From the NCBI GenBank assembly GCA_002728565.1, contig PBUX01000064.1, forward strand, positions 29,529 through 93,528: a DNA stretch of 64,000 nt. Reading direction: 5' to 3'. Position 1 is the first letter of the stretch. The number at the start of each line of letters is the position of its first letter. Made by a program: the position numbers and the translations under genes. Of this stretch, positions 2,505-50,734 are shown piece after piece. Source of the DNA: Methanobacteriota archaeon. Lineage in GTDB: Archaea; Thermoplasmatota; Poseidoniia; Poseidoniales; Thalassarchaeaceae. The notes below the pieces were generated by a model. That model worked only from the letters and a program-made list of their open reading frames with translations. It ran no database searches and had not been told where the DNA came from.

Positions 2505-4649
<2,145 letters not shown>

Positions 4650-8648: not shown

Positions 8649-8667
8649 GTATGAGGAGAAGAGCTAT

Positions 8668-10080: not shown

Positions 10081-10090
10081 GTAGAGAGCA

Positions 10091-12290: not shown

Positions 12291-12482
12291 TCTATCTCCT
12301 CCGAGTTCACTCGCAGGTTGGGTACCTAAGGATGATACTGCCGACCCCCTTTCTTGCCAAAAATCTGGTAACGTACTGGTTCGCTATTTGCAGTAGTTAT
12401 TGTGGCTGATGAGGGCTCTCCTACCTATAATACATTTGGAAAATCCCACGCTAACAAGCAAGACCCCTCTCAGAGGACATGT

Positions 12483-14942: not shown

Positions 14943-14969
14943 AGATAGCTACTAGGAGAAGCTCGGATT

Positions 14970-16388
14970 ATGGAATTCATCACCGGTAAACACATGCCCC
15001 GTCGTTCGTTCGTTCGAGGGATGGGTGCAACGGTGGCTCTGCCATTTCTAGAAGCGATGATCCCAGCTGGACGTATTTGGTCTAGCGCTAACGAAGATGC
15101 TTTACCTACTCGGCTAGTCGCGATTGAGATGGTCCATGGGGCCGCCGGATGTAACGAATGGGGTGCAACGCAAAACCTCTGGTCTCCGGAGGAAGTCGGC
15201 CGTGACTTTGATCTCACGCCAACCTCGCTTAGCTCACTCGAGCCATTCAGAGATTATCTCACGATCATTAGCAACACCGATGTCAGGATGGCAGAAGCTT
15301 TCCAGCCTTATGAAATTGGTGGGGACCATTTTCGCTCAAGTGCTGTTTTCCTGACTCAGTCTCACCCGAAGCAAACGGAAGGTTCAGACGTATACGTTGG
15401 AACTTCTCTTGATCAACTCTACGCTCAGCGTTTTGGGCAGGACACACCGATCCCTTCCATGCAACTTTGCATTGAGAATATCAATCAATCGGGTGGGTGT
15501 GCGTACGGGTATACGTGCGTCTACACGGACTCAATCAGTTGGGCATCGCCTACCGAGCCATTGCCGGTTATTCGCGATCCAAGGGTCGCATTCGACCAAT
15601 TGTTTGGTGCTGGAGGAACTGTTGAGGAGCGTGCACTTCGTCGCAGGACAAATAAGAGTATACTCGATTGGATCACTGGTCGTGTGGCCCAACTGCGAAG
15701 GGAGCTTGGCCCCAACGATATTCAGAGACTCGACAGGTACCTAGACAACGTTCGGGAAATCGAACGTCGTATCCAAAGAATTGAAGCTCAGAATATGAGT
15801 GGTGAGTCTCGAGATTTACCGGAGGCACCGGCCGGGGTACCGGACTCGTTTGAAGAGCACACCCGGCTGATGTTTGACTTGCAAGCACTCGCCTTCTCGT
15901 CAGATGTGACTAGGGTATTCTCGCTGAAGATGGGCCGTGACTCATCCGCACGGGTTTTCGCAGAGAGTGGCACAGATCGTCCGTTCCATCCCGCATCACA
16001 CCATGGCGGACGAGAGGAAGCAATTCTTGATTTTGCTAAGATCAACCGATACCACGTAAGCATGCTCCCATACTTCCTTGAGAAGCTTCAGAGCATACAA
16101 GAAGGTGACACCCATCTTCTAGACAAGACGATGATCATTTATGGATCACCGATGGCAGACGGGAATCTCCATAACCATCGTCGTGCTCCCCTCTTTGTTG
16201 CGGGTGGGGCGAATGGAAGGTTGGAAGGGGGGCTCCATCTTAAGACGCCGGACGGAACCCCGATGGCGAATGCTATGCTAAGTCTTGCTCATACGTTGGG
16301 CATGGATGATATGGATGATTTCGGTGACAGTACTGGAGAGCTGTCCTTATCAATGCCTGCCAGCACCCTTACTAGCGCAGGGTCATAA
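14970..16388 (+). CDS. DUF1552 (HxxSHH) protein, Tat-exported, copy B
   Basis: RRSFVRG Tat motif and 'FHPASHHGGREEA'. Confidence 0.85.
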   Translation: MEFITGKHMPRRSFVRGMGATVALPFLEAMIPAGRIWSSANEDALPTRLVAIEMVHGAAGCNEWGATQNLWSPEEVGRDFDLTPTSLSSLEPFRDYLTIISNTDVRMAEAFQPYEIGGDHFRSSAVFLTQSHPKQTEGSDVYVGTSLDQLYAQRFGQDTPIPSMQLCIENINQSGGCAYGYTCVYTDSISWASPTEPLPVIRDPRVAFDQLFGAGGTVEERALRRRTNKSILDWITGRVAQLRRELGPNDIQRLDRYLDNVREIERRIQRIEAQNMSGESRDLPEAPAGVPDSFEEHTRLMFDLQALAFSSDVTRVFSLKMGRDSSARVFAESGTDRPFHPASHHGGREEAILDFAKINRYHVSMLPYFLEKLQSIQEGDTHLLDKTMIIYGSPMADGNLHNHRRAPLFVAGGANGRLEGGLHLKTPDGTPMANAMLSLAHTLGMDDMDDFGDSTGELSLSMPASTLTSAGS

Positions 16389-16390
16389 GG

Positions 16391-18175
16391 ATGAGTACGC
16401 ACTTCTTAAGATCCTTAAGTGTATTGTGTCTTAGTGCACTGTTATCGGGCGCAGTACCTCCTGAGTCGCCGGTGGCGGATGCAGCCATGCGAGCCGACTT
16501 GGATAAGGTGCGGATACTTCTTAAGGGTGGAGCGGATGTAAACGTTGCTCAAGGCGACGGAATGACTGCACTTCACTGGTCAGCTGAGAATCGCAGTGTC
16601 GAGATGGCTGCGATGCTTATCTATGCTGGTGCGAATGTGGAGGCTGTTACCCGGATCGGTGGCTACACACCACTGCATCTGGCCTCACGGTCTGGTAGTG
16701 CTGCGATCGTTCAGGAGCTGCTCGAAGCTGGTGCAAACCCAACGGTCGCGAGTAGCGCAGGTGGAGCCACACCCCTTCACTTCGCAGCATCAGCATCAAG
16801 TAGGGGATCAGTGATCTCGTTACTTGACCATGGTGCCGAGATTGATGCTCGTGAGAGTGCTTGGGAACAGACACCGCTCATGTTTGCTGCCTCACTTGGT
16901 CGTACTGAGATCGTGGAGTTATTGCTCAGCCGAGGAGCGGACGTATCCGTTACCACTTCTGCTGTCTACTTGCCGGCGCTTCAGGATGAGGACCGGGCTG
17001 CTCGACAGCGCAGGGACAAAGTGCTCGATGGATTCCGTGCTCAGAATGTCTCGGGATCTGAGTCTTGGAGACCAAGCCCGACAGAGGTACAGGCAGCAAT
17101 GGAGTCTTCTAGGATAGACCCAGAAGAATCAGCTAATCCTGAAGAAGAGGGAGAAGACGCCTACAACGAACAGGTCGGTGTCCCTGGTGGGAACTCTTAC
17201 GCGGATCTCGTAGGTACGATGGGTGGGACCACTGCTTTGATTCATGCTGTTCGAGAAGGACATCTCGAAACAGTGGGTGTGCTTTTGGATCATGGTGCGG
17301 ACATCAATCAACCTAGTGCAGGTGACCAGACGACACCGTTACTGAGTGCAATAATTAACGGCTACTTTGATCTTGCTCTTGAGTTGCTTAAGCATGGCGC
17401 TGACCCGAGACTCGCGAGTACGGCAGGTACGACACCACTTTTCTCCGTAATTAATACGAGATGGGCACCAAAGGCTCGTTATCCACAGCAGGAAGCCCAC
17501 AAGCAGCAACAGGCAACACACTTAGAAGTGATGGAGGCCCTGCTCCGATCTGGAGCTAACCCGAACGCGCGGTTGACTAAGCACCTGTGGTTTATGGAAT
17601 ACACATTCAGCCACTTGGGCATCGACACCTCCGGAGCTACTCCGTTCTGGCGTGCGACCCATGCACTTGATGTACCGGCGATGAAGCTTCTAGTTGAATA
17701 TGGTGCCGATCCTGGTATTCCCACGACCAAGGGGCGGGATCGTCGCTCACGCGGGGGTGGAGGAGAAGATCCCTCTGGACTGCCCCCTGTCCCATTTGGT
17801 GGGCCAGCTGTCCACCCGATTCATGTAGCTGCAGGTCATGGATACGGCACTGGTTACGCGGGTTACTCACATAGGCATGCGCCAGATGCATGGCTTACGA
17901 CTGTGAAGTATCTCGTTGAAGAGCACGGAGCTGACGTCAATGCGCGAGATCACAACGGATATTCCCCAGTCCATAACGCTGCATCTCGCGGTGATATTGA
18001 GATGATTCGCTACCTTGTGGACAAGGGAGCAGACGTTATGGTGGTGAGCCGCCGGGGGCAGACAACCGTCGATATGGCAAACGGCCCACAGCAACGGATC
18101 CAGCCGTTCCCGGAAGCGATGTCATTGCTTGAAAGCCTGGGTGCAAAAAACAATCACAATTGTGTGAGTTGCTGA
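16391..18175 (+). CDS. Secreted ankyrin-repeat protein, copy B (C-terminal ...LESLGAKNNHNCVSC)
   Basis: Signal peptide. ANK repeats. Collinear with copy A. Confidence 0.8.
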   Translation: MSTHFLRSLSVLCLSALLSGAVPPESPVADAAMRADLDKVRILLKGGADVNVAQGDGMTALHWSAENRSVEMAAMLIYAGANVEAVTRIGGYTPLHLASRSGSAAIVQELLEAGANPTVASSAGGATPLHFAASASSRGSVISLLDHGAEIDARESAWEQTPLMFAASLGRTEIVELLLSRGADVSVTTSAVYLPALQDEDRAARQRRDKVLDGFRAQNVSGSESWRPSPTEVQAAMESSRIDPEESANPEEEGEDAYNEQVGVPGGNSYADLVGTMGGTTALIHAVREGHLETVGVLLDHGADINQPSAGDQTTPLLSAIINGYFDLALELLKHGADPRLASTAGTTPLFSVINTRWAPKARYPQQEAHKQQQATHLEVMEALLRSGANPNARLTKHLWFMEYTFSHLGIDTSGATPFWRATHALDVPAMKLLVEYGADPGIPTTKGRDRRSRGGGGEDPSGLPPVPFGGPAVHPIHVAAGHGYGTGYAGYSHRHAPDAWLTTVKYLVEEHGADVNARDHNGYSPVHNAASRGDIEMIRYLVDKGADVMVVSRRGQTTVDMANGPQQRIQPFPEAMSLLESLGAKNNHNCVSC

Positions 18176-23958: not shown

Positions 23959-24546
23959 ATGTCTATGGTTAAGACCCCATCTACGATGTTAGATCTTGGC
24001 ACTCGAGCCCCTAGCTTTTCACTTCCGGACCCAGTTACTGGTCGCATAGTCTACAGGGATGATTTTGCTGATACCAAAGGACTATTGGTTGCCTTCCTGT
24101 GTAATCACTGCCCCTTCGTAAAGCATATTGCCGATGAGTTCTCTGCGTTTGCGGCTGAGTACCAAGAGAGGGGGCTTGCAATTGTAGCAATCAATTCTAA
24201 CGATATCGAAACCCATCCAGAGGACAGTCCTGGACAAATGGTCACCGAGGCAGGTAAGCGCGGGTACACGTTCCCGTATCTCCTGGATGAGTCGCAAGAG
24301 ATTGCCAAGTCCTATCGAGCTGCTTGCACCCCAGATTTTTTCTTGTTTGATAATGATTTCAGGCTCGTATACCGAGGCCAGTTTGATGCGAGCAGGCCTT
24401 CTCTTGAGGCGCCAGTTACAGGTACCGACCTTCGAAATGCTAGTGATGCAGTCCTCGCTGGAATTGCCCCTACAGACCTACAAATCCCGAGTCTGGGCTG
24501 CAATATCAAGTGGAAGCCTGGTAATGCTCCCGACTGGTTTGGATAA
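23959..24546 (+). CDS. Thioredoxin-fold (redoxin/AhpC-TSA-like) protein
   Basis: 'CNHCP' CxxC-type motif in a thioredoxin-like fold context. Confidence 0.7.
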   Translation: MSMVKTPSTMLDLGTRAPSFSLPDPVTGRIVYRDDFADTKGLLVAFLCNHCPFVKHIADEFSAFAAEYQERGLAIVAINSNDIETHPEDSPGQMVTEAGKRGYTFPYLLDESQEIAKSYRAACTPDFFLFDNDFRLVYRGQFDASRPSLEAPVTGTDLRNASDAVLAGIAPTDLQIPSLGCNIKWKPGNAPDWFG

Positions 24547-28982: not shown

Positions 28983-29714
28983 GTGACTCTAAACCTTCTT
29001 ATTCAGATTGAACCGCCTGGTGGGCTAACGGAGGCGCTTAGCCAGAGCCCGCTGTTGGCGATTGGGGCTATGTTTATCGCAGGGGTTCTTACCAGCCTAA
29101 CCCCCTGTGTTTACCCGATGATACCGATCACATCAGCTGTGATCGCTGGGACTGCAAGTGAGGGTCAGTCGAAGGCGCGGACGGTTGGCCTTACACTCAC
29201 CTACGCTGTTGGTCTGGCAATGCTGTATGCGATGCTTGGAGCAGTTGCTGGAGTCACCGGACAGCTTTTCGGGACGGTCAGTGCTAGTCCCTGGGCTCGT
29301 CTGGCCATAGGAAACTTCCTCGTAATTTTCGCTTTGGCGATGCTTGATGTTTTACCAATTCCTGTACCTCGGAAGTTGCTGGAGCGTGCTAGTCAGAGTG
29401 AAGGAGGATCCTACGGAGCAGTCTTTGTTATGGGTGCGATGTCTGGAGTTGTGGCAGCTCCGTGTGGAGCCCCAGCGTTTGCAGTTGCGCTTACCTGGGT
29501 GGCAGCGACTGGAGCGGGACTGATGGGTTTCGTTTACCTGTTCGTATTCTCATTCGGGATGACAGCGCTACTGATTGTGGTTGGCTTATTTTCTGGGACC
29601 TTGGCGCTTCTTCCGAATTCAGGAGCGTGGATGGTGTGGATAAAACGAGCCGCCGCTGTCATCATGATTGGGATGGCTGAATATTACTTTGTGCTAGCCG
29701 GCTACAACCTGTAG
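28983..29714 (+). CDS. ccdA: Cytochrome c-type biogenesis protein CcdA (DsbD-family thiol:disulfide transporter)
   Basis: Six TM helices with two membrane-embedded cysteines (TPCVYP…, APCGAP…). Confidence 0.85.
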   Translation: MTLNLLIQIEPPGGLTEALSQSPLLAIGAMFIAGVLTSLTPCVYPMIPITSAVIAGTASEGQSKARTVGLTLTYAVGLAMLYAMLGAVAGVTGQLFGTVSASPWARLAIGNFLVIFALAMLDVLPIPVPRKLLERASQSEGGSYGAVFVMGAMSGVVAAPCGAPAFAVALTWVAATGAGLMGFVYLFVFSFGMTALLIVVGLFSGTLALLPNSGAWMVWIKRAAAVIMIGMAEYYFVLAGYNL

Positions 29715-29722
29715 GGGAAACA

Positions 29723-30244
29723 ATGAGAGCAAATATCTCCATATTGCGACTGGCTATAATTGCAATAATTGCTGCGCCGGGACCGATTTGGGCACAGGTT
29801 GCCGGAGAGGGCTCTGTATCTCTTCCATTTGGGAGCGTGGCTCCTGGAGCAGCCCTGCAGGATCTGGAGGGCAACTCTGTCGATCTGATCGATTACATCA
29901 AAGGAAAACCGGCTCTCATCGAATTCTGGGCGAGTTGGTGCGAGCAGTGCGATGTGCTCCAACCACAGCTCGATCGTATCCAGGCAGAGCATGGTGAAGA
30001 GATTAAGATCGTTGCAGTGGCTGTTGGTGTCGCCCAAAGTTTGCGACGCGTGAAACGGCATTTCGAAGATCATAATCCTGGCTACCCATTCTTGTACGAT
30101 GCGCGCGGGGCAGCTGTTAGAGCGTATAATGCTCAGACCACATCGATCGTTGTAATGCTCGACAGTGACGGGAAGGTTGCTTACACCGGTGTCGGAACTT
30201 CCCAGGACTTGGTTGGGGCGGCTCAGGAGCTACTTAGACGTTAG
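29723..30244 (+). CDS. Periplasmic TlpA/ResA-like thiol:disulfide oxidoreductase
   Basis: Signal peptide plus a 'WASWCEQC' CxxC motif. Immediately downstream of ccdA. Confidence 0.8.
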   Translation: MRANISILRLAIIAIIAAPGPIWAQVAGEGSVSLPFGSVAPGAALQDLEGNSVDLIDYIKGKPALIEFWASWCEQCDVLQPQLDRIQAEHGEEIKIVAVAVGVAQSLRRVKRHFEDHNPGYPFLYDARGAAVRAYNAQTTSIVVMLDSDGKVAYTGVGTSQDLVGAAQELLRR

Positions 30245-30268: not shown

Positions 30269-30322
30269 TAAGAACAGAGGGCCCCGACACACGGATAGGC
30301 GTCCATGTCGAGGCCCTCTGTA
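30269..30322. terminator. Putative bidirectional terminator hairpin between convergent genes
   Basis: ACAGAGGGCC…GGCCCTCTGT 10-bp stem with T-rich flanks, between the tlpA-like gene (+) and the peroxiredoxin gene (-). Confidence 0.35.
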
Positions 30323-30349: not shown

Positions 30350-30976
30350 TTAGTTTCCTTCTGGTTCCGGGGTAACTCGGTCGATGACTTCAGCAAGATG
30401 TTCGTAAGCCATCGGATCATTCTGATTAAAGCTCTCGATTGTCTCCGCAATCCGGCCGTCTGGCCCGACCACAATTACTGCTCGGCTATCCACCATGTTG
30501 TTTGAGCGGAGACCTCCACCAAAGGCAGCGTAAGTACCACCATTGTTAGAGGCATCGCTGCCGAAGAGAAACGGAAAATCCGCATCTTTCAACCACGATC
30601 CGAGTTCACTTTGTGAGTCATTAGAAACGCCTATAAGCACAACGTTTCGTCCTTCATTGAAAAGGCTTGCGTACTGATCACGGTACGCTGTCATTTGGAC
30701 TGTTCAGCCAGGTGTCCTGACGCGGAAGAAGAACGCGAGGACAACCGTTTTGCCTCTGTAGTCACTCAGGCGGATTGGCTCTTGGAGTAACCCGTAACGG
30801 GTCGCTCCAGGTAGAGCAAAATCCGGGGCCATAGCACCAACAGCAAGGAGCCCCGAGTCCTGAGCGCTGGCTTCTGCCGGCGCGCCCATCGCGATCACTC
30901 CTGCAAGAAGACCAAGTGCGATCAATTTGCGCATCTGTGTCTGTCTCCCGGGTGTGAGGCTAATTCTAACGGTCAA
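30350..30976 (-). CDS. Periplasmic PrxQ/BCP-type peroxiredoxin with an in-frame UGA (putative selenocysteine) at the peroxidatic position
   Basis: Two same-frame ORFs (30704-30976 and 30350-30694) are separated only by a TGA at 30704-30706. Read-through gives ...VVLAFFFRVRTPG-U-TVQMTAYRD..., which aligns with E. coli Bcp ...[23 protein letters not shown]... A hairpin GCGUAC-N8-GUACGC lies 15 nt 3' of the UGA (plus-strand 30669-30688). Confidence 0.65.
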
Positions 30977-36779: not shown

Positions 36780-37211
36780 CTAGGAAGAAGGCTCGTCCGC
36801 CTTTCGAGCAATGACCAAGCTGGTCGATCCAGCGATAGCACCCAACAAGGGCAAAAAGACTAGAGCTTCGGTTACGCCAGTAAACTCGTTGCCTGCGAGC
36901 TTCGTTCCGCTTATCAGAAGTATTGCTAGCAAGAAGCCACCCAGCGCCCCCATGATCGCCACCCGAGAGATGGAGAGTTTTTCGAACACAAAACGACTCC
37001 CGGTTGCAGCCAACACCGCCGAGAATGTTACACCAATACCAAAACCCCACACTGTACCGGCGAGTATCGCGAAAAAAGGATCTTCCTCTTCAAGTCGTCC
37101 AAGGGCGGCGGCGGCGGCGGTCAAGATGGCAAAAAGAAAGAATCCCGCTGTGGCAAAAATTACCCCCAGGCCAAGAACCCCTCGCGCTACCCTTTTCCAT
37201 CCAGACACCAA
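36780..37211 (-). CDS. Hypothetical four-TM membrane protein
   Basis: Clear hydrophobic helices. Contains a (GGC)6 tract encoding poly-Ala. An overlapping plus-strand ORF is low-complexity and was rejected. Confidence 0.45.
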   Translation of the reverse strand: MVSGWKRVARGVLGLGVIFATAGFFLFAILTAAAAALGRLEEEDPFFAILAGTVWGFGIGVTFSAVLAATGSRFVFEKLSISRVAIMGALGGFLLAILLISGTKLAGNEFTGVTEALVFLPLLGAIAGSTSLVIARKADEPSS

Positions 37212-37326
37212 GGCCCCCTTCCTCTTAGGTCAGCAACCCCCTCAGGCTGGTAAGTGATGGATTGTTCGGGCAGAGGTCAATCTCCCAAACGGCTTGATGC
37301 CTTGCTGTCAGTCACCATCTTTCGAT

Positions 37327-37761
37327 ATGGGTATCAACCAAGAAAAAGAAGTTCCAGTATCACTCACGAGGCTCACAGTCCGCACCTCTGAGCTGGATTC
37401 TTTTGGGCACGTCAACCACGCGGTGTACCTCTCCTACCTCGAACATGCGCGCTTCGAGGCACTTAGAGAGGCCGGGTTTGACTGGGCCGTTCTCGATGAT
37501 CGAGGCTGGGCAATCTTTGTGGTTCGAATCGAAATAGACTATGTAGCAGAGGCGAAAAGGGAGGACGACCTGCTTGTCCGTACTTGGGCCGAGTCGTTTC
37601 GCAGAACCAGCATGACCCTTTGTCAGGAGATAGCCCTCGACAACAATCCTGCCGCCATCATCGCTCGCGCTAACGTTACCGCCGTTTGGATAGGCCCTGA
37701 CCGAAAACCAATCCGAGTTCCAGACGAAGTGCGTGAAAGGCTAACTGGTGAAGTCCGTTAA
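37327..37761 (+). CDS. Hotdog-fold acyl-CoA thioesterase (YbgC/4HBT-like)
   Basis: '…SELDSFGHVNHAVYLSYLEHAR…' motif. Start set at the second ATG. Confidence 0.75.
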   Translation: MGINQEKEVPVSLTRLTVRTSELDSFGHVNHAVYLSYLEHARFEALREAGFDWAVLDDRGWAIFVVRIEIDYVAEAKREDDLLVRTWAESFRRTSMTLCQEIALDNNPAAIIARANVTAVWIGPDRKPIRVPDEVRERLTGEVR

Positions 37762-37800: not shown

Positions 37801-38361
37801 ATGACCACCAAAGACGAACTTCGAAAACTCCTTATCGAACGCTCCGTCCGCCTTGGTGATTTTACCCTGGCCAGTGGAGCGAAGTCTGACTACTACATTG
37901 ATGCCCGTCGGACTACGATGTCAGCGGAAGGGCAGAGGCTCGTAGGCAGGGTCGCTTATGCGGCAATTCAAGACCATGGTCTTGATCCGACTCATGTGGG
38001 CGGCCTGACTATGGGGGCAGATCCTATCGCTTACGCGATTGCGCATGTAAGCGCCCTAGAGGGTTGGATCATCGATGGTTTTTCCGTCCGAAAAAGCGCC
38101 AAAGACCACGGAACTGGGCAACGTATAGAGGGCGGGCTCCCAAAAGATGCTCGGGCGCTTATGGTAGAGGATACAATGACAACAGGACTGAGCACGTTAA
38201 AAGCCATCGATGTTGTTCGAGCCCATGGCGCTGAGGTTTTGGGGGTTATCACCCTAGTGAACCGGTCCGAAGATGCCGCAGCCCTCTACAATGCTCAGGG
38301 GTTACCACTCATCTCGTTGTACACAGGAAAAGAGCTTTTAGAGGCGGCTCAGTCGAGTTAA
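37801..38361 (+). CDS. pyrE: Orotate phosphoribosyltransferase
   Basis: Type I PRTase fold with PRPP-binding 'LMVEDTMTTG'. Confidence 0.9.
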   Translation: MTTKDELRKLLIERSVRLGDFTLASGAKSDYYIDARRTTMSAEGQRLVGRVAYAAIQDHGLDPTHVGGLTMGADPIAYAIAHVSALEGWIIDGFSVRKSAKDHGTGQRIEGGLPKDARALMVEDTMTTGLSTLKAIDVVRAHGAEVLGVITLVNRSEDAAALYNAQGLPLISLYTGKELLEAAQSS

Positions 38362-39464
38362 TCAATCAACCTGAGTGGCATCACTAGGCATAAGTAATCC
38401 GCCGCGTCCTCTCCTGCCGGTTCTATTGTCGCCGCCCTCTCTGGTGCCCTAAAGGCCAACTTCACTTCTTCTGAGGGTATGTGACGGAGAACCTCCAGTA
38501 AGTAGTTGGCGTTGAAGCCGATCTCTAATTCCTCTCCTTCATATCCAACCTCCATCTCATCATGTCCCTCTCCTAGGTCGGGGGTTAGGACACTGAGATG
38601 AACCCGGCCGGGTTCGAAACGCATACGAATCCGGTGGGTCTGGTCTGAGGCAACAACTGCCATTCTGCGGACAGCCGAAGCAAGAGCTTTTTTCTCTATA
38701 AAGGCCAGCTTGTCATTGTCTTTGGGTATAACCTGCTCGTAATTCGGATACGAGCCCTCGATGAGGCGCGTGTATATCTCAGTATTGTCGGCCCTAAACC
38801 CTAGGTGGTTTCCACTACGTGCCACCTCAAGTTGATCCTCATCCTGAAACAACCGTTGCACTTGAGTTAACGCTGCTGGTGGGACTATAAAATCTGCGGA
38901 AGTCGTTCCTGTAGCTTCAACCTTGACACTCATGCGTGCCAGTCTGTGTCCATTAGTCGCCACCATTTTCATCTCACCATCTCTCAGTTCCCACAGAACA
39001 CCGTTCAAGATAGGCCTGCTTTCTTCGGTGGATACAGCAAAAGATGTATGGTGAATCAGTGCATTGAGGTCTTTTCCAGTTACGGAAATACCCTCTGAGA
39101 AATCGACCTCTGCTAGGGTTGGAAACTCATCTGCCGGCAAGCCATTTAATTTGAATTGACTTGCTCCGCATATCAGTTCGATCTGATCTCCGCGGGTTGT
39201 AATTTCGACCGGTTGATCTGGTAACTCTCGAGTGATCTCTTGAAGTTTTTTACCTGGTGCCGTAAGGCTGCCGGGTGTCTTTACGTCAGCGAGAACTTTG
39301 ACTCGCACAGCAACATCTAAGTCTGTACCACTCATCCATACGCCATCCTCAGAAGCCTCAAAGAGGATGTTCGATAGAACTGGAAGAGTAGTCTTCGATG
39401 GAATGCTAGCTGAGACCGCAGCAAGACCTTTGTGAAGGTTTTGCCGAGTGATGGTGAAATTCAT
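38358..39464 (-). CDS. dnaN: DNA polymerase III beta sliding clamp
   Basis: 368 aa with a three-domain clamp signature. Convergent with pyrE and downstream of dnaA. Confidence 0.95.
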   Translation of the reverse strand: MNFTITRQNLHKGLAAVSASIPSKTTLPVLSNILFEASEDGVWMSGTDLDVAVRVKVLADVKTPGSLTAPGKKLQEITRELPDQPVEITTRGDQIELICGASQFKLNGLPADEFPTLAEVDFSEGISVTGKDLNALIHHTSFAVSTEESRPILNGVLWELRDGEMKMVATNGHRLARMSVKVEATGTTSADFIVPPAALTQVQRLFQDEDQLEVARSGNHLGFRADNTEIYTRLIEGSYPNYEQVIPKDNDKLAFIEKKALASAVRRMAVVASDQTHRIRMRFEPGRVHLSVLTPDLGEGHDEMEVGYEGEELEIGFNANYLLEVLRHIPSEEVKLAFRAPERAATIEPAGEDAADYLCLVMPLRLID

Positions 39465-39545
39465 CGGGATGATGCTCCTGATGGTCTTTGCCGTGCGACC
39501 TTAAGGTCAACAAGATTTCTCACATAACCTAGATACTATCTCTTA

Positions 39546-39770
39546 TTACTTACAAAAAACATAGCCGTAGTAGGTGTTGTGGTTTTGTGGAATCTTGTAC
39601 CCAATAAGACTCCGTTTCCTTATGCCCTGTCTGTAAAAACGATCTATTTCGCTCCGATAAACTTTTGGTGGAAAAATGTTTAAAGTTCTCAAGTGGTAGA
39701 AATTTCTGTTTTTTGACCGTGGAAAAACGAGGGGTTTTCCACACTTGTTCACATTAGCCGTGGAAAACTC
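39546..39770. other. Putative oriC: AT-rich dnaA-dnaN intergenic region with at least five DnaA-box-like 9-mers
   Basis: TTTTCCACA (39735-39743), CGTGGAAAA (39718-39726 and 39759-39767), TGGTGGAAAAA (39666-39676), TTGTGGAAT (39585-39593), together with A/T tracts that could serve as DNA-unwinding elements. Confidence 0.5.
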
Positions 39771-41205
39771 TAGCATGGTCTGTTTTTAGTTCCGCAATTA
39801 CCTCCTCGACCCGGTCCCGGAAGGCCTCGTCGCCATCCATCCTAGATGCCACCTTTCGAATCGAATACAAAACAGTGGAGTGGTCTCGTCCTCCGTAAAG
39901 CATCCCGATACCCTGAAGCGGGGTCCCGAGTAGCTCGCGTACCACGTACATCGCTACGTGACGAGCCTCGGCTATGTTTTTAGACCGTGACTTCGAAGAG
40001 AGGGCTTCGGGGCGCACACGCCACTGACTGGCAACGAGCTGGGTGATTCGATCTGGAGAAGCAACCGGCCCTCTTTGTCTCCTCTCCAGCCTTCTGAGAG
40101 CCAGAACGCGCTTAGCAAAAGAAAGGGTTATCTCTTCGTTCCATACCGAGGAAACAGCGAGAAGCTTAAGGACCGCACCCTCTAGCTCTCTAACTGAAGA
40201 CGAACAGGCATGGGCAATGTAGTCGATGACGTCTCCGGCGAGATCTAACCCTTCGTCCTCCGCCTTGGTGCGCAGGATCGCCATGCGAGTCTCGTAATCA
40301 GGCGGGCGTAAATCCACCACGAGACCCCACTCAAACCGTGAGACTAGGCGCTGTTCCAAGCCCTCCATCTCACGAGGAGGCCTGTCGCTTGTGACCACTA
40401 TCTGGCCTTGGGCGTCGTACAGCGCGTTGAAGGTATGGAAGAACTCTTCTTGGGTGCTCTCCTTTCCCCTAAGAAAATGGATGTCGTCGACGAGCAGTAA
40501 GTCGATTTGCCGATAACGAGCGCGAAAACGATCCGTGGCGCCCTTGCGTATAGCCTGGATTAGTTCGTTGGTGAACTGCTCGGAGGATACATAGGCCACG
40601 CGCCGGCTTGGGTCGATCCTTAGCGATGCATGTCCGATGGCGTGCATGAGGTGTGTTTTGCCCAAGCCTACTCCACCGTAGAGGAATAGCGGGTTGTAGA
40701 GCTGGCCCGGGTTGTCCGCAACTGCGCGCCCGGCAGCATCCGCCAGCTGATTGTTGCCACCCACCACGAATCGGTCGAAGGTGTATCGACTAAAGAGGCC
40801 GGGGTCTGCCGGCGATGAAGATGGCGGACTAGCCGGGCTTGGTGCCGGGCGCCTGCTCACTGAGCCGCTTTGCAGGGTCGACCCCGCTTCTTTTCCAGCG
40901 AAGATGTCCGTAGATGGCTCGACGAGGACCGCCGGCAGGACGCCCCCTTCTTCGGAAGGACCGCTACTAACGGACAGGAGGACTTTGTAACCTAGGACGC
41001 TTGCTCCCGCTTCCTTGATCAGGTCTCCGTATTTGTCTTCCAGCCACTCTGCGTGGAAGGGGCTTTGCGTCTCGATCACAAGCGCGTCTGCCGAAACAGC
41101 GACACACCTAGCTCCAGCAATCCAGGTTTGGAAGGCGTGCTCCGGCACGAGCGCGCGGACTTGTTCAAGAATTGCCGTCCAGACGTCTTGTGTGGTCAGC
41201 TCCAT
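39754..41205 (-). CDS. dnaA: Chromosomal replication initiator protein DnaA
   Basis: AAA+ Walker A 'GGVGLGKTHL' and a C-terminal DnaA box-binding domain. Confidence 0.95.
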   Translation of the reverse strand: MELTTQDVWTAILEQVRALVPEHAFQTWIAGARCVAVSADALVIETQSPFHAEWLEDKYGDLIKEAGASVLGYKVLLSVSSGPSEEGGVLPAVLVEPSTDIFAGKEAGSTLQSGSVSRRPAPSPASPPSSSPADPGLFSRYTFDRFVVGGNNQLADAAGRAVADNPGQLYNPLFLYGGVGLGKTHLMHAIGHASLRIDPSRRVAYVSSEQFTNELIQAIRKGATDRFRARYRQIDLLLVDDIHFLRGKESTQEEFFHTFNALYDAQGQIVVTSDRPPREMEGLEQRLVSRFEWGLVVDLRPPDYETRMAILRTKAEDEGLDLAGDVIDYIAHACSSSVRELEGAVLKLLAVSSVWNEEITLSFAKRVLALRRLERRQRGPVASPDRITQLVASQWRVRPEALSSKSRSKNIAEARHVAMYVVRELLGTPLQGIGMLYGGRDHSTVLYSIRKVASRMDGDEAFRDRVEEVIAELKTDHARVFHG

Positions 41206-41512
41206 GAAGCCTTCCTTGCGCCGATCTCATCCCTGCCGCTCGTTAGGCGGGAGGCTTCGAAGCGGGATCGGCTGAAGGGCATGTTGGGCTGTTGTTCCGG
41301 TCTTAAGAGGGGCCGCTATACAGACTGCTCAATAGCGAGGGGGGTCGAACCTACAGAGCCTTTCCATAAATGTCAAAATGCCCGAAAAGGCCCCGAATCA
41401 AAGGGGTTAGAGCTATTTAAGGGGCGATCGGCGTTGACCGTTTTGGGGCGCCCCGACTATCTTGGTAAGCTCGTCGATAACCGCAGTACAACCAAGGATC
41501 GGGCTGGCAGGA

Positions 41513-41662
41513 ATGAAGCCGACATACAAACCGCGCAACCGAAAGCGGGTGAACAAGCACGGGTTTCGCGCCCGCATGAAGACCGCCGGTGGCCGGAAGG
41601 CTTTAAATCGGCGCCGGAAGCGTGGGCGTACCCAGTTGGTCGTCAAGATTGGCGGCAAGTAG
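41513..41662 (+). CDS. rpmH: 50S ribosomal protein L34
   Basis: '[22 protein letters not shown]…' at the canonical position upstream of rnpA. Start set at the ATG inside the longer TTG-initiated ORF. Confidence 0.85.
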
Positions 41663-41670
41663 GCTCTACG

Positions 41671-42048
41671 AAAGCGCTCCCGGGTAGGGCCGAGAAGTTA
41701 CCGCGAGGAACGCGGATCCACAGAGGGTCTGAAATTCGTGAGTTGCTTAAGCAGGGGCAAAGAGAGAAGAAGCCGCACGTGGAGATTTTCTTCGGGCCTT
41801 CTCCTGGCTTACACTCTCGGCTGGGGCTCATCGTTCCCAGGTACGGACACAGCGTTGTGGAGCGTAATCTCGTTAAGCGGCGGCTACGAGAAATAGGGCG
41901 CCGTTTGGCACTGCCGGTACTTGGCGAGCGAGGCGTTCCTGCGGATGTGCTCGTGCGTGCGAAGAGATCAGCGTATGGTGCGGAGTATACGGTTCTTGAG
42001 TCGGAGATCAGGACAGCGGTGGAGGCATGGTGCTCAGACAGGGTTTGA
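41671..42048 (+). CDS. rnpA: Ribonuclease P protein component (start codon not identifiable)
   Basis: 'LPRGTRIHRGSEIRE…PHVEIFF…GLIVPRYGHSVVERNLVKRRLRE' matches the RnpA family. No in-frame ATG/GTG/TTG lies between the rpmH stop and the conserved N-terminus, so the 5' coordinate is approximate. Confidence 0.55.
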   Translation, partial: KALPGRAEKLPRGTRIHRGSEIRELLKQGQREKKPHVEIFFGPSPGLHSRLGLIVPRYGHSVVERNLVKRRLREIGRRLALPVLGERGVPADVLVRAKRSAYGAEYTVLESEIRTAVEAWCSDRV

Positions 42049-42347
42049 TAGCGATGGTTCGTCTCTATCGGTTGGCAATTTCGCCTTGGACGCCTGCAGC
42101 ATGCCGCTTCTCGCCGAGTTGCTCTAGTTACGCGATAGAGGCCTTAGTTGAGCATGGTTCGTTGCGGGGGGGCTGGCTTGCATTTTTGCGGATTATGCGT
42201 TGTCACCCTTGGGGCGGCCACGGACTCGACCCGGTACCGCCGGTCAGGGTAAGAGCGAGTGACCCGGCCCGCGTAGCTCAACGCCCAGAGACAAAAAACA
42301 GATCGCAAATCTTAGAGCCACAAGCTAAACGAGCGATACGTCCATGA
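42027..42347 (+). CDS. yidD: Membrane protein insertion efficiency factor YidD
   Basis: '…CRFSPSCSSYAIEA…' motif. Overlaps the 3' end of rnpA. Confidence 0.85.
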   Translation: MVLRQGLIAMVRLYRLAISPWTPAACRFSPSCSSYAIEALVEHGSLRGGWLAFLRIMRCHPWGGHGLDPVPPVRVRASDPARVAQRPETKNRSQILEPQAKRAIRP

Positions 42348-44053
42348 AGACAGAGATGCGCTTTGTTCTAGCGATAGCTTTGATGTTGGCTGTCTTGATA
42401 GGCACCAACCGGCTCTTCCCGCCGCCGCCCATGGAGGATGTAGTGGCTACGGGTCCGGTCGAGACCAGTGAGCCCCTCAGAGGCCCCGAGTCGGGAGGGT
42501 TGCCACCCTCGTCACAAGCGAGTGATAGCCAGCCTTCAGGGGTCCCTGGCGCTGACCAAGCGGAAGAAGACGCAAGCTTGCCGGTCCAGAATGTTGTCGT
42601 CGAGGGGCCGTTGTACCGCTACATCTTCACTAGTCGCGGTGCGCAACTGGTTTCAGCGGAGCTGTTGGACTTCCAGGCCATTAACAGAGGCGGGCCGGTT
42701 CAGGTAGTCCCGGATGGAGCGTCTGGCTACTTGGGTAGCAAGGTGGTTGTGGAGCAGGACACGCTTGATCTGACCGATGCAGTGTTCCGTGTAGAGCCTG
42801 CTGGCGGTCTTAATTTAACTGCGGAGGGTGGGGCGAAGCCTCTGGCTTTTGTCTACGATCACCCGAGCGGCAACTTCACATACCGGGTCAGCTACACATT
42901 CGATCCCGACGATTACACCATCGGTATTAGTGGCTCTATGGATGGAGTGACTCGGGCGCTTCTGGTCACGGACCTTGGCGAGGGCTTGGCATATGCCGAA
43001 GCTGACTCGGCGCTCGAGCAGCGATCGATGGCCTACGTGTACAACCACCTCCAGGATGGCATTCGGTCTACCATGCTCGACAAGGCCGATCCGGAGATTA
43101 TAGAAGGGCCGCTCGTCTGGGCTGCCTTTCGGAGCAAGTTTTTTGTTGCGGCAATTCTGTCGGGTGCGAGGGACGATTTGGTAGAGGACACCGGATACCT
43201 GGGAGGCTTGCTAGTGCGCCCGGCAGACCTGCCCGAGAGGGTCCGTGTTGGGGTGGCTCGAACGGTGTCAGGTGGGGAGGAGTATGCTTACCGCTTGTTC
43301 ATCGGACCGCAGCAGTATGCTCTGCTGTCGTCGCTTGGTGACGGAATGGAAGAGGTTAACCCGTACGGGTGGCGCTTTTTTAGGCCAATAATTCGGCCGT
43401 TCGTGTCCATTATCATGACAGTTCTGACCTATTTGCACACCCAGTTCAGTATGGGATACGGCTGGGTCTTGATTGTCTTCGGTGTGATGATGCGAGTAGT
43501 GCTATTCCCGCTTAACCATAAAGCAATGAAGGCACAGCTGCGGAACATGGCGGTCCAGCCTTTAGTTAAGCAGATCCAGGACAAACACAAGGACAATCCG
43601 GAGAAGCTTCAGAAAGAAATGATGAAGCTTTACAAGGAGCACGGCTTTAACCCGCTGGCCGGTTGTCTCCCAATGTTGCTGCCTTGGCCGGTGCTGATCG
43701 CTCTATTCTTCGTTTTTCAAAACACAATCGAATTACGCGGGGTCCCGTTTCTCTGGCTCCCAGATCTCTCGGCGAAGGATCCGTTCTATGTCCTTCCTGT
43801 CTTGCTTGCGGTCTCAATGTTCCTGATGCAGTGGATTAGTCTTCGATCGCTCGATACCGACAACCCGCAGATGAAAATGATGATGTACATCATGCCGCCA
43901 ATGATGCTTTTCATCTTCATGAATTTGGCAAGCGGGTTGAACCTTTACTACGCCACAGCAAACATCGCGACCCTGCCGCAGCAAATCTGGATTGCTCGCG
44001 AACGTAAACGGATGCGCCAAGGGCCAGCGCTTACGCTAAGCGATGGCGACTAA
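42344..44053 (+). CDS. yidC: Membrane protein insertase YidC
   Basis: 569 aa with a periplasmic domain and a C-terminal 5-TM Oxa1 core. Confidence 0.9.
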   Translation: MKTEMRFVLAIALMLAVLIGTNRLFPPPPMEDVVATGPVETSEPLRGPESGGLPPSSQASDSQPSGVPGADQAEEDASLPVQNVVVEGPLYRYIFTSRGAQLVSAELLDFQAINRGGPVQVVPDGASGYLGSKVVVEQDTLDLTDAVFRVEPAGGLNLTAEGGAKPLAFVYDHPSGNFTYRVSYTFDPDDYTIGISGSMDGVTRALLVTDLGEGLAYAEADSALEQRSMAYVYNHLQDGIRSTMLDKADPEIIEGPLVWAAFRSKFFVAAILSGARDDLVEDTGYLGGLLVRPADLPERVRVGVARTVSGGEEYAYRLFIGPQQYALLSSLGDGMEEVNPYGWRFFRPIIRPFVSIIMTVLTYLHTQFSMGYGWVLIVFGVMMRVVLFPLNHKAMKAQLRNMAVQPLVKQIQDKHKDNPEKLQKEMMKLYKEHGFNPLAGCLPMLLPWPVLIALFFVFQNTIELRGVPFLWLPDLSAKDPFYVLPVLLAVSMFLMQWISLRSLDTDNPQMKMMMYIMPPMMLFIFMNLASGLNLYYATANIATLPQQIWIARERKRMRQGPALTLSDGD

Positions 44054-44079
44054 GCTGCGCACGCGGACTTTGTGCTGAG

Positions 44080-45450
44080 GTGACCATGGACGTCGACACG
44101 ATAGTGTCGCTGTCGACACCACCCGGGGTGGGTGCCTTAGCGGTAGTTAGGCTAAGCGGCCCGGGTGCAGTAGATGTGCTTAGAGCACTTTTGGTGAAAA
44201 CTGCCCCCATGCCGAGTGTTAGAGAACCTTCGTTGCGGCGCCTAACCGATCCTGACACGGGCGAAGTGATAGATGAGGTTGTCGTTACCCGCTTTCAGGC
44301 TCCAGGGAGTTACACAGGAGAGGATATGGTGGAGCTCTCGTGCCACGGGGGGTGGTTGGTCCCAGAGCTTGTTGTAGAGGCATGTCAACGGAGTGGGGCT
44401 AGGATAGCCGACCGGGGTGAGTTTACCCGAAGGGCCTACCTGCACGGGAAGCTGGATTTGATACAAGCAGAGGCTGTGGCAGATGTAGTCAACGCGCGAA
44501 GCAGGGCTTTGCACCGAGCTGCGTTGGTCCAGATGGAGCGCGGTCTTTCGAGGAGGGTGTCTGATCTGCGTGAGCGGCTGCTTCGACTCGAGGGGTTGTT
44601 GGCTCATCATGTTGATTTCCCCGAGGAGGACGAGCCCCCCGTCCCGATTACAGCTGTCGCAGATCAAGCGGCTCGGATGGTTGCCGACCTCGAACTCATG
44701 TTGGCAACCGCTCCGGAGGGCGAGCTACTTAGGGAGGGAGCGCTCACGGTTTTTGCAGGGCGCCCTAACGTGGGTAAATCGTCTCTATACAACGCATTGT
44801 TGGGAGAAGAGCGGGCGATCGTCAGCGAAGAGGCTGGCACAACCCGGGACGCCATTGAGGCCGTGGTTCAGATTGGAGGGTTTCCTTTTCGGCTTGTGGA
44901 TACGGCGGGACTAAGGGAGCCAGCGGGAAATATAGAGCAGAAGGGTATCGAAATCGCACGAGGCTATCTGGGTCGAGCAGATGTAGTCCTCTACTGTGTC
45001 TCCGCGGATGAAGGCCCGATGGAAGAAGACCGAGCGTTCCTCGAGGCGCATGATGGGGCGCCAGTCGTGCTGGTGAATACCAAGGCCGACATTGCAAAAA
45101 CCCAGAAACATTGGGATCCAGAGGGGACAGCTGCGCGAGTCCAGGTGTCTGTGGAGAGTGGGGCCGGCCTAGAGGAGATCCGTCAGGTGCTGCCGCAGCT
45201 TGTTTATTCAAGCATTGTAACGGCGGAGCAAGGTGTGCCTGTGCTCACGCGCGGTCGACAAGCACGAGGGTTAAGGGCTGCGAAAGTGGAGGTTGAAGCG
45301 TTCAGCGAGGCTCTTGACCAAGGGCTGCCGGCAGAAGTGGCCTCTACGCACCTGCGGGCTGCAGAGACTGCGCTAGAAGAGTTGTTAGGCGCCGTGTCAG
45401 CAGATGATGTGCTCGACGTAGTGTTCCGGGAGTTCTGCATAGGGAAGTGA
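44080..45450 (+). CDS. mnmE: tRNA modification GTPase MnmE
   Basis: G domain 'GRPNVGKSSL' and the C-terminal 'CIGK' motif. Confidence 0.9.
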   Translation: MTMDVDTIVSLSTPPGVGALAVVRLSGPGAVDVLRALLVKTAPMPSVREPSLRRLTDPDTGEVIDEVVVTRFQAPGSYTGEDMVELSCHGGWLVPELVVEACQRSGARIADRGEFTRRAYLHGKLDLIQAEAVADVVNARSRALHRAALVQMERGLSRRVSDLRERLLRLEGLLAHHVDFPEEDEPPVPITAVADQAARMVADLELMLATAPEGELLREGALTVFAGRPNVGKSSLYNALLGEERAIVSEEAGTTRDAIEAVVQIGGFPFRLVDTAGLREPAGNIEQKGIEIARGYLGRADVVLYCVSADEGPMEEDRAFLEAHDGAPVVLVNTKADIAKTQKHWDPEGTAARVQVSVESGAGLEEIRQVLPQLVYSSIVTAEQGVPVLTRGRQARGLRAAKVEVEAFSEALDQGLPAEVASTHLRAAETALEELLGAVSADDVLDVVFREFCIGK

Positions 45451-45576
45451 TGCAACGGGTAGGAAAGGCGACTGAAGGAGCTTTGCGGGTCGCCATCTCA
45501 AGCTACTTTGCCGAGATTTGGCGTGCATTCGATCTACCGGTAGCAATGTCAGTTTCCCCCGACCTTTTTTCCGTGC

Positions 45577-47451
45577 ATGCGCAATTCCTATGAAGTCATT
45601 GTCGTAGGGGGAGGGCACGCCGGTGTAGAAGCCGCAGCGGCGTCAGCTAGAGCTGGTGCTCGGACACTTCTGGTTTCCCCTGATCTGTCTAGGGTTGGGC
45701 AGATGAGTTGCAACCCTGCGATTGGCGGGGTCGCGAAAGGGGTTGTCGCGCGCGAGGTCGATGCCCTTGGAGGGGTCATGGGTCAGGCGACTGACGCCTC
45801 GCGCATTCAGTTTCGCATGCTGAATCGCTCTAAGGGGCCAGCTGTCTGGGGCCCTCGAGCCCAGTGTGATCGGTCAATGTATCCAGTGGCTGTGCGTAGG
45901 GTGCTTGATGGCCTGCCAATGCTAGATCTCTTCCAGGACATGGTCGCAGACTTGCTGGTTGACTCGGGACGTGTTGTTGGAGTCCGGACCAAGGGAGGCT
46001 TGGAGTTCACGGGCTCTTGCCTTGTTATTACTACAGGCACCTTCCTGCGAGGGCGTATCCATGTGGGGGGGACGGCTGGCGTCGAGGCCGGAAGAGCGGG
46101 TGAGGCCCCCTCGGTTGAGTTGGCGAAGGGTCTAGAGGATCTCGGGCTTGAGGTGAGGCGCTTCAAGACGGGCACGCCACCGCGTGTCGACGGGCGGTCC
46201 GTCGACTTTACGAAGACCGAGCGGCAAGATGGAGATGATATACCGTACCGGTTCGCAGCTTATGCGCAGGAGATAGTGCCCGCTCAGGTTCCGTGTTGGA
46301 TCACGTATTCCGGCAACGGATTGAAGGATGTTGTTCTCCGAAACCTTGAGAGAAGCGCGCTTTACGGTGGGGAGATAGCAGGCCGTGGCCCGCGCTACTG
46401 CCCCTCAATAGAGGACAAGGTGGTTCGCTTTCCGGAGGCACCGAGGCACCAAGTGTTTCTGGAGCCGGAGGGGCTGAGCACGACAGAGCTATACGTAAAC
46501 GGCCTCTCTACTTCTCTCCCGGCTGAGGTTCAGCTTGAGTTTTTGCGCACGATTCCTGGCCTTGAAGATGCGAACATGACCAAGGTGGGATACGCGATCG
46601 AGTACGATTACTTTCCTCCCCACCAGCTGAGCCACACGCTAGAGTTGAAGACTCACCCGGGGTTGTTTCTGGCCGGTCAGATAAACGGCACAACAGGTTA
46701 CGAAGAGGCAGCAGGACAGGGCGTTATTGCCGGGATCAATGCCGCACTGAGCGTGAGGGGGGAGAAGCCTTTTGTACTAGAGCGAGACGAGGCTTACATC
46801 GGGGTCTTGGTCGATGATCTCGTAACCCGGGGAGTCGATGAGCCATACAGGCTATTCACTTCTCGCGCTGAGTTTAGGCTCCTGCTCCGGCAGGACAATG
46901 CAGCGCGCCGTATCGGTATGCTGGCTCGGGACAGGGGCCTGCTCACAAGCGATCAGGCCGACGCGCTGGGCTTGCGGCTTAAAGAAGAAGATCGAGTTAT
47001 GGCCTGGTTCGGGGCCACGTCGGTTACCCCAGAAGAAGCATCAGGGATTCTGGATGAAGCCGGGTCGAGCCCGATCCAGCAGAAGGTTCGCGCGCTAGAG
47101 CTGTTGAAGAGGCCAGGAGTGAGTGCGCGTTCACTGGTGTCTTTGGCTGAGGAGCCCCCCAAGGGCGATCTTGCAGATGAAGTTTTAGCCGCCGTCGAGG
47201 TAGAGCTAAAATACGCCGGCTATGTAAAAAGAGAACGCGAAAGAGCTAAGCGATTACGAGATCAGGCTGGTTTTCTGTTAAGCAAGGACCTCCCGTATAT
47301 GGATTTCGTTACGGTCTCGTGGGAAGCGAGAGAGAAGCTTAGCGAGACCAAGCCTAGCTCGTTGGCACAAGCCGGCCGGATTCCGGGAGTCTCGCCCGCC
47401 GACCTTCAGAATCTCGTGCTCGAGGTGAGAAGGCTTCGTTCTAGCCCCTAA
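45577..47451 (+). CDS. mnmG: tRNA uridine 5-carboxymethylaminomethyl modification enzyme MnmG (GidA)
   Basis: FAD-binding '[14 protein letters not shown]' motif. 624 aa. Confidence 0.95.
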
Positions 47452-47479
47452 GGAGGAGGGGTTAGGGCGCCAGCCTGCC

Positions 47480-47495
47480 TGTTTCACGTGAAACA
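47480..47495. promoter_or_regulatory. parS centromere-like site (perfect 16-bp palindrome TGTTTCACGTGAAACA)
   Basis: Exact match to the widespread parS consensus, 180 bp upstream of parA. Confidence 0.6.
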
Positions 47496-47676
47496 AGGCG
47501 TCTCGGGGCCGCTTAACAGGCTGGGCCACTTGTTTTCGGAGGCTTTTGTCTTTCCTGCTAGCAGTTTTCCGGCTCAGGCGCGCAGCTGCCTTCTTAATAA
47601 GCCCTCCTAGCAGGTTTCGTGCCCCCCTGTATGTCCCTTATATTGCGCCCCCTCGATAACCCTCAATGTGGCCTTA

Positions 47677-50137: not shown

Positions 50138-50262
50138 GCCAGTGGGTCGCCTTTCCCCTTCTTGTTTTGGGTGCCTGTCAGTGTTGGTCGTCACTGTGGT
50201 GCTAACGCCCTTTGTGGGGGTAGATTTAACCACACGAATCATTAAATGAGGCGATAGACCGA

Positions 50263-50709: not shown

Positions 50710-50734
50710 TGCCCAGCCCGCCGTTGGCGATCTG

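Follow-up and report, generated by a model that had tools for sequence, protein, structure and literature searches.

A 64,000-nt stretch of contig PBUX01000064.1 (assembly GCA_002728565.1), analysed as a whole and hereafter called the window, carries on its minus strand two open reading frames (ORFs), 30704-30976 and 30350-30694, that share one frame and are interrupted solely by a TGA at 30706-30704. Both the reading of the strand and the ORF list gave this arrangement, as a preliminary description of the locus had stated. Reading through the TGA yields ...VVLAFFFRVRTPG-U-TVQMTAYRDQYASLF..., and around the active site ...FFFRVRTPG-U-TVQMTAYRDQYASLF..., where U denotes selenocysteine (Sec). 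We consider it very likely that the two ORFs form one gene for an exported BCP/PrxQ-like peroxiredoxin (Prx) whose peroxidatic residue is Sec, and the interpretation of the locus as a Sec-containing PrxQ/BCP-type Prx, offered in the preliminary description, is supported. The features of the gene are as follows.

30350 to 30934, minus strand: predicted Sec-containing BCP/PrxQ-like Prx, complete coding sequence of 194 codons plus a TAA stop, with the UGA as codon 77 (from the translation, Pfam and the starts of homologues)
30704 to 30706, minus strand: predicted Sec codon, an in-frame UGA at residue 77 (TGA in relatives, TGC in Cys homologues)
30944 to 30949, minus strand: putative Shine-Dalgarno-like GGGAGA, 9 nt upstream of the ATG (from reading the sequence)
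30863 to 30934, minus strand: Sec-type (export) signal peptide MRKLIALGLLAGVIAMGAPAEASA, with predicted cleavage between A-S-A and Q (basic n-region, hydrophobic h-region, AxA)
30704 to 30727, minus strand: active-site motif F70-R-V-R-T74-P-G-U77, with FxxxTxxU replacing the canonical PxxxTxxC
30482 to 30484, minus strand: predicted catalytic Arg151 within ...MVDSRAVIVVGPDG..., aligned to the Arg region (MVAKRAVFIVKPDG) of the A. pernix BCP 2cx3
30669 to 30688, minus strand: predicted bacterial selenocysteine insertion sequence (SECIS), a 6-bp stem GCGUAC/GUACGC with an 8-nt loop CGUGAUCA, encoding AYRDQY(A)

The inspected homologues begin at MRK/MRR or a few residues upstream, so the coding sequence almost certainly starts at the ATG at 30934-30932 (MRKLIALG...) and not at the TTG at 30976. 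The N-terminal fragment held in public databases is exactly 76 amino acids long, which matches this start. The start at 30976 given in the preliminary description was therefore replaced by the ATG, based on the homologue N-termini and the GGGAGA element. Reassignment of TGA was considered and ruled out, since 21 of the 51 long ORFs in the window terminate at TGA, which is the commonest ordinary stop there; the genetic code is thus not reassigned.

A homology search in which Cys replaced the stop returned more than 100 clusters of C-terminal fragments of about 114 amino acids at 77-97% identity, and only four full-length matches, every one of them with Cys at the site. At the DNA level two sets were compared. 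The genome set comprised 80 species-level Gemmatimonadota genomes, including Longimicrobiales, Gemmatimonadales and Candidatus Palauibacter, with 82 gene copies, and the metagenome set comprised 80 loci from a scan seeded with Cys-type homologues. TGA stood at the homologous codon in 82/82 genome copies, with the frame open on both sides, and in 76/80 metagenome loci despite the Cys-type seeds. When all copies were pooled (n = 167), 158 carried TGA and nine carried TGC. Protein identity among the TGA forms drops to about 48%, and the metagenome scan yielded a distinct TGA clade, 45-52% identical to the window protein, whose contig names suggest a soil origin. Residues that are 100% conserved are encoded by three to six synonymous codons each on either side of the TGA; since fully conserved residues vary synonymously on both sides, the translated frame is under purifying selection across the TGA. 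TGC occupied the UGA-equivalent codon in P0066, P0072, P0094, L087, L098, and L111, forming a Cys/Sec pair with the TGA forms, and in a search of Protein Data Bank (PDB) sequences the residue at the TGA position aligned with the peroxidatic Cys of the A. pernix BCP (2cx3). The preliminary description had called for a search for Cys- and Sec-containing orthologues, and both were found, with Cys exactly at the TGA position. Based on these comparisons, the residue inserted at UGA codon 77 is almost certainly Sec.

The locus could alternatively hold a pseudogene, an assembly or sequencing error, or two independent small genes. All public entries that we looked up give separate ORFs of 76 and 114 amino acids, and an ATG lies three codons past the TGA, both of which would suit such an explanation. 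However, the same TGA is found in 158 independent assemblies, with both halves under purifying selection and no frameshifts, and the interruption cuts the thioredoxin fold at its active site, so that neither half could fold or act by itself. Moreover, the C-terminal half has no signal peptide, and the Met codon three codons past the UGA is CTG in four genomes, so that the downstream half has no start codon in those genomes. A genuine stop followed by divergent sequence in close relatives was what the preliminary description had named as fatal to its reading; the orthologues instead keep both halves in the same frame under purifying selection in 158/158 TGA copies. The comparative and stop-codon data together exclude a pseudogene, an assembly error, two genes, and code reassignment. 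We regard a pseudogene, error or gene pair as vanishingly improbable and, on the comparative data, already refuted.

Bacterial SECIS (bSECIS) elements are recognized by a stem of 4-16 bp, a loop of 3-9 nt, a G in the first two loop positions, a distance of 16-37 nt between UGA and loop, and a minimum free energy of -7.5 kcal/mol or lower (PMC13188914). The hairpin GCGUAC-CGUGAUCA-GUACGC begins 15 nt past the UGA and places its apical loop 21 nt from it; with a stem of 6 bp, a loop of 8 nt, and G then U at loop positions 2-3, it agrees with three of these criteria. Its folding z-score was -1.2, and 11 chance sites within the window combined an in-frame TGA with a hairpin fitting the same geometric rules. 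The significance of the hairpin therefore comes from comparison among genomes and not from its geometry. Synonymous-codon entropy was about zero only at codons +6 to +11 (GCG TAC CGT GAT CAG TAC), while spacer and downstream codons varied freely. The six hairpin codons occurred together in 80/83 genes (96%) versus 0.76% expected from codon usage elsewhere in the same genes, and they include the minority codons CGT (15% of Arg codons) and GAT (23% of Asp codons). The whole 20-nt element was identical in 107/113 distinct sequences. As a control, the Cys forms P0072, L098, L087, and P0094 encode an identical or closely similar peptide (A/T-Y-R-D-Q/E/R-Y) with TAT, CGC/CGG, and GAC. Judging from these codon patterns, the hairpin is under RNA-level or sequence-level selection tied to the TGA. 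Of the stem-loop proposed in the preliminary description, the position 15 nt past the UGA stood and its sequence proved to be under selection, whereas the bare structure was no better than chance.

Variation was seen at the bases flanking the stem, which are third-codon positions (window 30668/30689; columns 21/42 of alignment A2). In the soil clade this seventh pair was C-G (30), U-A (5), A-U (1), or G-C (1), and in the marine clade it was A·A (52), G·G (18), or A·C (6), but never G·A or A·G. The switch between A·A and G·G occurred about five times independently on the protein tree. These co-varying bases suggest a selected seventh closing pair that is partly non-canonical.

Two further observations concern the sequence around the UGA. 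Among the codons just 5' of it (30707-30712), codon -2, where it encodes Arg, was CGT in 43/45 genomes, compared with about 15% CGT among Arg codons elsewhere in these genes, and the Gly at -1 was GGC in 75/82; the sequence context directly before the UGA may thus be constrained. On the plus strand, a terminator scan flagged the SECIS palindrome (30669-30688) as an antisense site with eight pairs (G-T allowed) and a T-rich tail. This terminator-like site is most likely a by-product of the palindrome.

The full-length product matched Pfam AhpC-TSA (PF00578) with E = 1.8e-21 and 76.8 bits against a cutoff of 26. Its top NCBIfam match was E. coli Bcp (NF006960), with 52 bits against a cutoff of 140; PrxQ (NF053650) gave 40 bits (cutoff 260), and PrxU (NF040737), the equivalog of the known Sec-Prx, gave 42 bits (cutoff 270), so that all three fell below their cutoffs. 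The clade is divergent and has no curated model of its own. The top PDB sequence matches (2cx3, 2ywn, 3drn, and 3hjp) were archaeal BCPs. AlphaFold2 gave a confident model of P0001, a Cys variant within the clade, with a predicted local distance difference test (pLDDT) score of 85.7; in it, the catalytic residue lies in the first turn of helix alpha-2. The model's top Foldseek matches were 9a4d_B (a BCP), 3hjp, and 5epf, with a template-modelling (TM) score of about 0.81, and all were Prxs. NCBIfam, the PDB sequence search, and the predicted fold thus all pointed to BCP/PrxQ as the closest subfamily, in agreement with the assignment made in the preliminary description, whose local alignment of TPG-U-TVQ with TPGCTVQ of E. 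coli Bcp also matched. Two more of its statements, that a resolving Cys is absent and that the protein bears a signal peptide, held beyond the single sequence. The window protein contains zero Cys, none is conserved in the family, and 51/83 copies are Cys-free. The signal-peptide pattern was found and is kept across the family, with equivalent N-termini in 14/14 sampled homologues, and the signal region was disordered in the structure model.

The active site combines canonical and unusual residues. T74, U77, and R151 are all present in the window protein. Position -3 is Thr in 79/83 copies, Ser in one, and Gly in three, and Arg151 is invariant in homologue alignment A3. Residue -7 is aromatic in every one of the 158 TGA forms (Phe in 142, Tyr in 16), and the eight Pro-type Cys forms all have Pro there. 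The one exception to the pairing of Pro with Cys is L081, which has Cys together with Phe.

Several gene copies were of interest in their own right. The L081 form (1246-1818; protein P0001) is a 78%-identical TGC (Cys) form that still has Phe at -7 and an intact 20-nt hairpin. Present on a single metagenome contig, it resembles a form that has lately switched from TGA to TGC and kept a fossil SECIS, or else it reflects a variant introduced by sequencing. A midpoint-rooted neighbour-joining tree did not distinguish between an outgroup position of the Cys/Pro forms and nested reversions. Two genomes carry tandem Sec-Prx paralogues (L043 3001-3990; L079 1044-2100), each copy with its own TGA and an identical hairpin, and the second copy of each tandem reads FRARGSG-U, in which the conserved Thr and Pro are both gone. 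Near-identical gene copies also turned up in metagenome-assembled genomes or records that bear the names 'Gammaproteobacteria bacterium', 'Euryarchaeota archaeon', and 'Candidatus Thermoplasmatota archaeon' (L046-L048, P0111), which are probably mis-binned or mislabelled contigs.

The kind of protein described here is already known. Sec-Prxs with a TxxU motif (PF00578/COG1225) are an established family of bacterial selenoproteins; PrxU of Eubacterium acidaminophilum is the biochemically verified member, and the survey of the Sargasso Sea yielded 43 Sec-Prx sequences (PMC13188914, PMC1088965). Some of these 43 sequences may belong to the same clade as the window gene. Like the Sec-Prx/PrxU family, the window protein has an AhpC/TSA fold of the COG1225 (Bcp) type, Sec at the peroxidatic position in T-x-x-U, and a UGA followed by a hairpin in the coding region. 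Unlike that family, in which the motif is PxxxTxxU, the window clade has F/YxxxTxxU, a signal peptide, no resolving Cys, linkage to genes for TlpA and CcdA (described below), and Gemmatimonadota hosts. With BCP/PrxQ proteins (E. coli Bcp, A. pernix 2cx3/4gqc, Sulfolobus Bcp1/Bcp4 3drn/3hjp, and M. tuberculosis BcpB 5epf), which were its best sequence and structure matches, it shares TPG-C/U-TVQ and the conserved Thr and Arg; this subfamily is reported to be monomeric or dimeric. It differs from them in having Sec for Cys, Phe/Tyr for Pro, no resolving Cys at +5 or elsewhere, and in being exported.

Three features lie next to the gene on its downstream side.

29723 to 30244, plus strand: TlpA/ResA-like exported thioredoxin with a WCEQC motif (Pfam Redoxin/Thioredoxin, NCBIfam ResA/TlpA)
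28983 to 29714, plus strand: CcdA/DsbD-family membrane electron transporter with C42 and C161 (Pfam DsbD_TM, E = 5.7e-45)
30274 to 30321, no strand assigned: strong inverted repeat in the 105-nt gap between prx and tlpA (-41.4 kcal/mol, z = -4.4, 0/200 shuffles as good)

The ccdA-tlpA pair is convergent to the prx gene, as the preliminary description had noted, and the inverted repeat between them is probably a bidirectional terminator. This arrangement was conserved among relatives. TlpA and CcdA were encoded convergently downstream of prx at 63/80 genome loci and at 55 of the 58 metagenome loci with enough sequence, and ccdA was co-located with tlpA at 60/80 genome loci and 55/80 metagenome loci. 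Overall, prx was linked to TlpA/CcdA at 118 of the 136 loci with enough flank (about 87%), while the upstream neighbour was shared by 12/80 only. The Cys forms L098 and L111 were also found in the TlpA-CcdA context, and TlpA kept its CxxC in 125/126 homologues. The conserved linkage, together with the loss of Pro in the Sec forms and the finding that the hairpin is unremarkable by itself, goes beyond what the preliminary description contained.

We propose the following course of events for the gene and its product. UGA codon 77 would be recoded as Sec during translation, with a SelB-type factor presumably binding the hairpin 15 nt downstream, and the signal peptide would direct export of the protein through the inner membrane. 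There, the selenolate would act with Thr74 and Arg151 to reduce H2O2 or organic hydroperoxides, being converted to a selenenic acid. Since the Sec-Prx has no resolving Cys, TlpA could act as the resolving partner: the first Cys of its WCEQC motif would attack the oxidised Sec to give a selenenylsulfide, and CcdA would then re-reduce TlpA with electrons from cytoplasmic thioredoxin. Gene linkage suggests this electron path from CcdA through TlpA to the Sec-Prx. The nearest experimental precedent is the envelope pathway of Caulobacter crescentus, in which ScsB passes electrons to TlpA and on to PprX, an exported PrxQ (PMC3322552). The window locus encodes the same kinds of component, an exported PrxQ-type Prx with a signal peptide, a TlpA-like thioredoxin, and a DsbD-family transporter, and a similar route of electrons is proposed for it. 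The Caulobacter PprX, however, is of the 2-Cys type and keeps the complete PxxxTxxC motif, and its transporter ScsB has large periplasmic domains, whereas here Sec is paired with a minimal CcdA in a conserved convergent three-gene module.

Several observations weigh against a Sec-dependent peroxidase served by TlpA and CcdA, and they bear on the residue, the hairpin, the chemistry, and the electron path. Genes for the Sec machinery (selA, selB, selD, and tRNA-Sec) were not found in the 64-kb window, a 10-kb upstream extension, or about 0.9 Mb of related loci, and no record of Sec use in Gemmatimonadota or Longimicrobiales was found in the open literature or supplements. The hairpin alone folds at -7.0 kcal/mol, just above the bSECIS threshold of -7.5, although the UGA with 45 nt reaches -9.7 kcal/mol. 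Rfam gave no SECIS match, either over the whole window at gathering thresholds or over 30500-30800 at E up to 10. No compensatory covariation occurs in the core stem, where all six pairs are invariant. The "absolutely conserved" active-site Pro is replaced in every Sec form; because this canonical residue is missing, and three copies also have no Thr, peroxidase chemistry is assumed only. Lastly, prx and tlpA-ccdA are convergent and not co-transcribed, and since TlpA/CcdA also mature cytochrome and copper proteins, the linkage could have a cause other than Prx reduction.

The absence of sel genes is expected, because the DNA searched consisted of short stretches. ARAGORN scans of the window and of 165 related loci turned up no tRNA-Sec, and the Pfam annotation of 50 ORFs in the window, which is oriC-proximal, contained no selA, selB, or selD. 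A tblastn search with E. coli SelA and SelD probe sequences gave no match in the related loci. Extension past the window edges revealed no sel genes, with menaquinone genes on the left and a right-edge protein that is not on record. In 0.93 Mb of Gemmatimonadota DNA, no second Cys/TGA gene family was detected, only the Prx family and off-frame noise.

One alternative is that a standard residue is inserted at the UGA, by read-through or recoding that needs no Sec machinery, for example through near-cognate Cys or Trp insertion stimulated by the hairpin, which would give a low-yield Cys-type or inactive Prx. Such an explanation would fit the failure to find sel genes in the window or related loci, a hairpin that is short and conserved in sequence without core covariation, and the natural TGC variant L081, which keeps the hairpin. 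It is difficult to reconcile with the persistence of TGA in 158/167 copies across deep divergence, since, if Cys were the product, one substitution of the A by C or T would suffice for full expression. In addition, Trp, Arg, or Gly would inactivate the protein because the position is the catalytic Cys in all homologues, and the hairpin fits the bSECIS rules for position and loop (G then U at 2-3, 21 nt). Cys/Sec pairing, TGA orthologues, and a SECIS are the accepted in-silico standard for selenoproteins (PMC13188914). We therefore consider insertion of a standard residue improbable and prefer Sec.

A second possibility accepts the selenoprotein and questions its function. The protein might be a Prx-fold selenol:disulfide oxidoreductase that is not a peroxidase and that acts with TlpA/CcdA in envelope maturation or repair, for example of copper or cytochrome centres or of sulfenic acids. 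The Pro of PxxxTxxC is Phe/Tyr in all Sec forms, two tandem paralogues and one other copy have no Thr (RGSGU or RGGGU), no resolving Cys is present, and TlpA/CcdA pairs are classically maturation factors. Furthermore, PrxL is a Prx-like ScsB substrate without peroxidase activity (PMC3322552), and the scores of the window protein are far under the NCBIfam Bcp and PrxU equivalog cutoffs. On the other hand, Thr74, Sec at the catalytic position, and Arg151 are kept, the closest sequences and structures are true BCP peroxidases, and 1-Cys BCPs are active peroxidases. The Pro-type Cys homologues L098 and L111, which share the TlpA-CcdA context, also carry the canonical motif in full. A function other than peroxide reduction is thus unlikely, though less so than insertion of a standard residue, and we favor a Sec-dependent peroxidase.

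Additional genes were noted elsewhere in the window. A catalase-peroxidase of the KatG type with two peroxidase domains lies at 2526-4649. Another AhpC/TSA-fold protein, ResA-like and with a CNHC motif, is encoded at 23959-24546, and it shows no evident signal peptide. A three-gene cassette is tandemly duplicated (6207-11881 and 12402-18175); each copy encodes a large protein with PSD/PSCyt domains (DUF1585/1587/1588/1592/1595), a DUF1552 (HXXSHH) protein, and an ankyrin-repeat protein of about 595 amino acids. The region 38358-51496 is a replication-origin neighbourhood with dnaN, dnaA, yidD, yidC, mnmE, mnmG, parA, and parB, so that the window is core chromosome and not a mobile element. A second selenoprotein was considered across the TGA between the ORF 36811-37257 (148 amino acids) and the 4HBT thioesterase 37294-37761, which lie in one frame with a gap of the TGA plus 12 codons, and it was rejected. 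The upstream ORF has no family match, and because the thioesterase domain is complete alone, 36811-37761 was judged to hold two genes or a spurious upstream ORF.

In the public entries that we looked up (GenBank, RefSeq/PGAP, UniRef, IMG, and Tara), the gene appears only as a 76-residue "hypothetical protein" and a 114-residue "redoxin/peroxiredoxin" fragment. The exact window fragments alone are present on more than 500 contigs, and the protein collection has no entry for a full-length protein with X at the Sec position. The preliminary description had foreseen that standard gene callers would split the gene, and RefSeq PGAP is among those that do. A family-specific model would fix the annotation in hundreds of genomes.

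The clade differs from the known Sec-Prxs by its motif, export, proposed 1-Sec mechanism, CcdA-TlpA module, and Gemmatimonadota hosts; the principles of Sec decoding and Prx catalysis are unchanged by these findings. It provides a natural experiment, in which a Pro-less 1-Sec Prx stands beside Cys/Pro sister forms in the same context and an apparent revertant, L081, and these forms can be compared for what Sec gains a Prx outside the cytoplasm. The invariant 20-nt element could be used to probe SelB specificity and to look for further selenoprotein genes in the phylum. Going by the genomes and metagenome loci compared, the gene is nearly fixed across the Gemmatimonadota sampled. More tentatively, and with confidence that falls somewhat short of an even call, we suggest that it is no sporadic Sec/Cys variant and represents a near-fixed, phylum-wide envelope selenoperoxidase of marine, sponge-associated, and soil Gemmatimonadota, with an active site remodelled by an aromatic residue for the otherwise universal Pro, in strict co-occurrence with Sec, an essentially invariant SECIS, and a dedicated CcdA-TlpA module. 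If so, the phylum would have Sec decoding as a core trait that has gone unreported so far, and the change from Pro to Phe/Tyr would be an adaptation to selenium catalysis. The gene itself implies that Gemmatimonadota, abundant members of ocean, sponge, and soil communities, decode Sec and rely on selenium for peroxide defence in the envelope.

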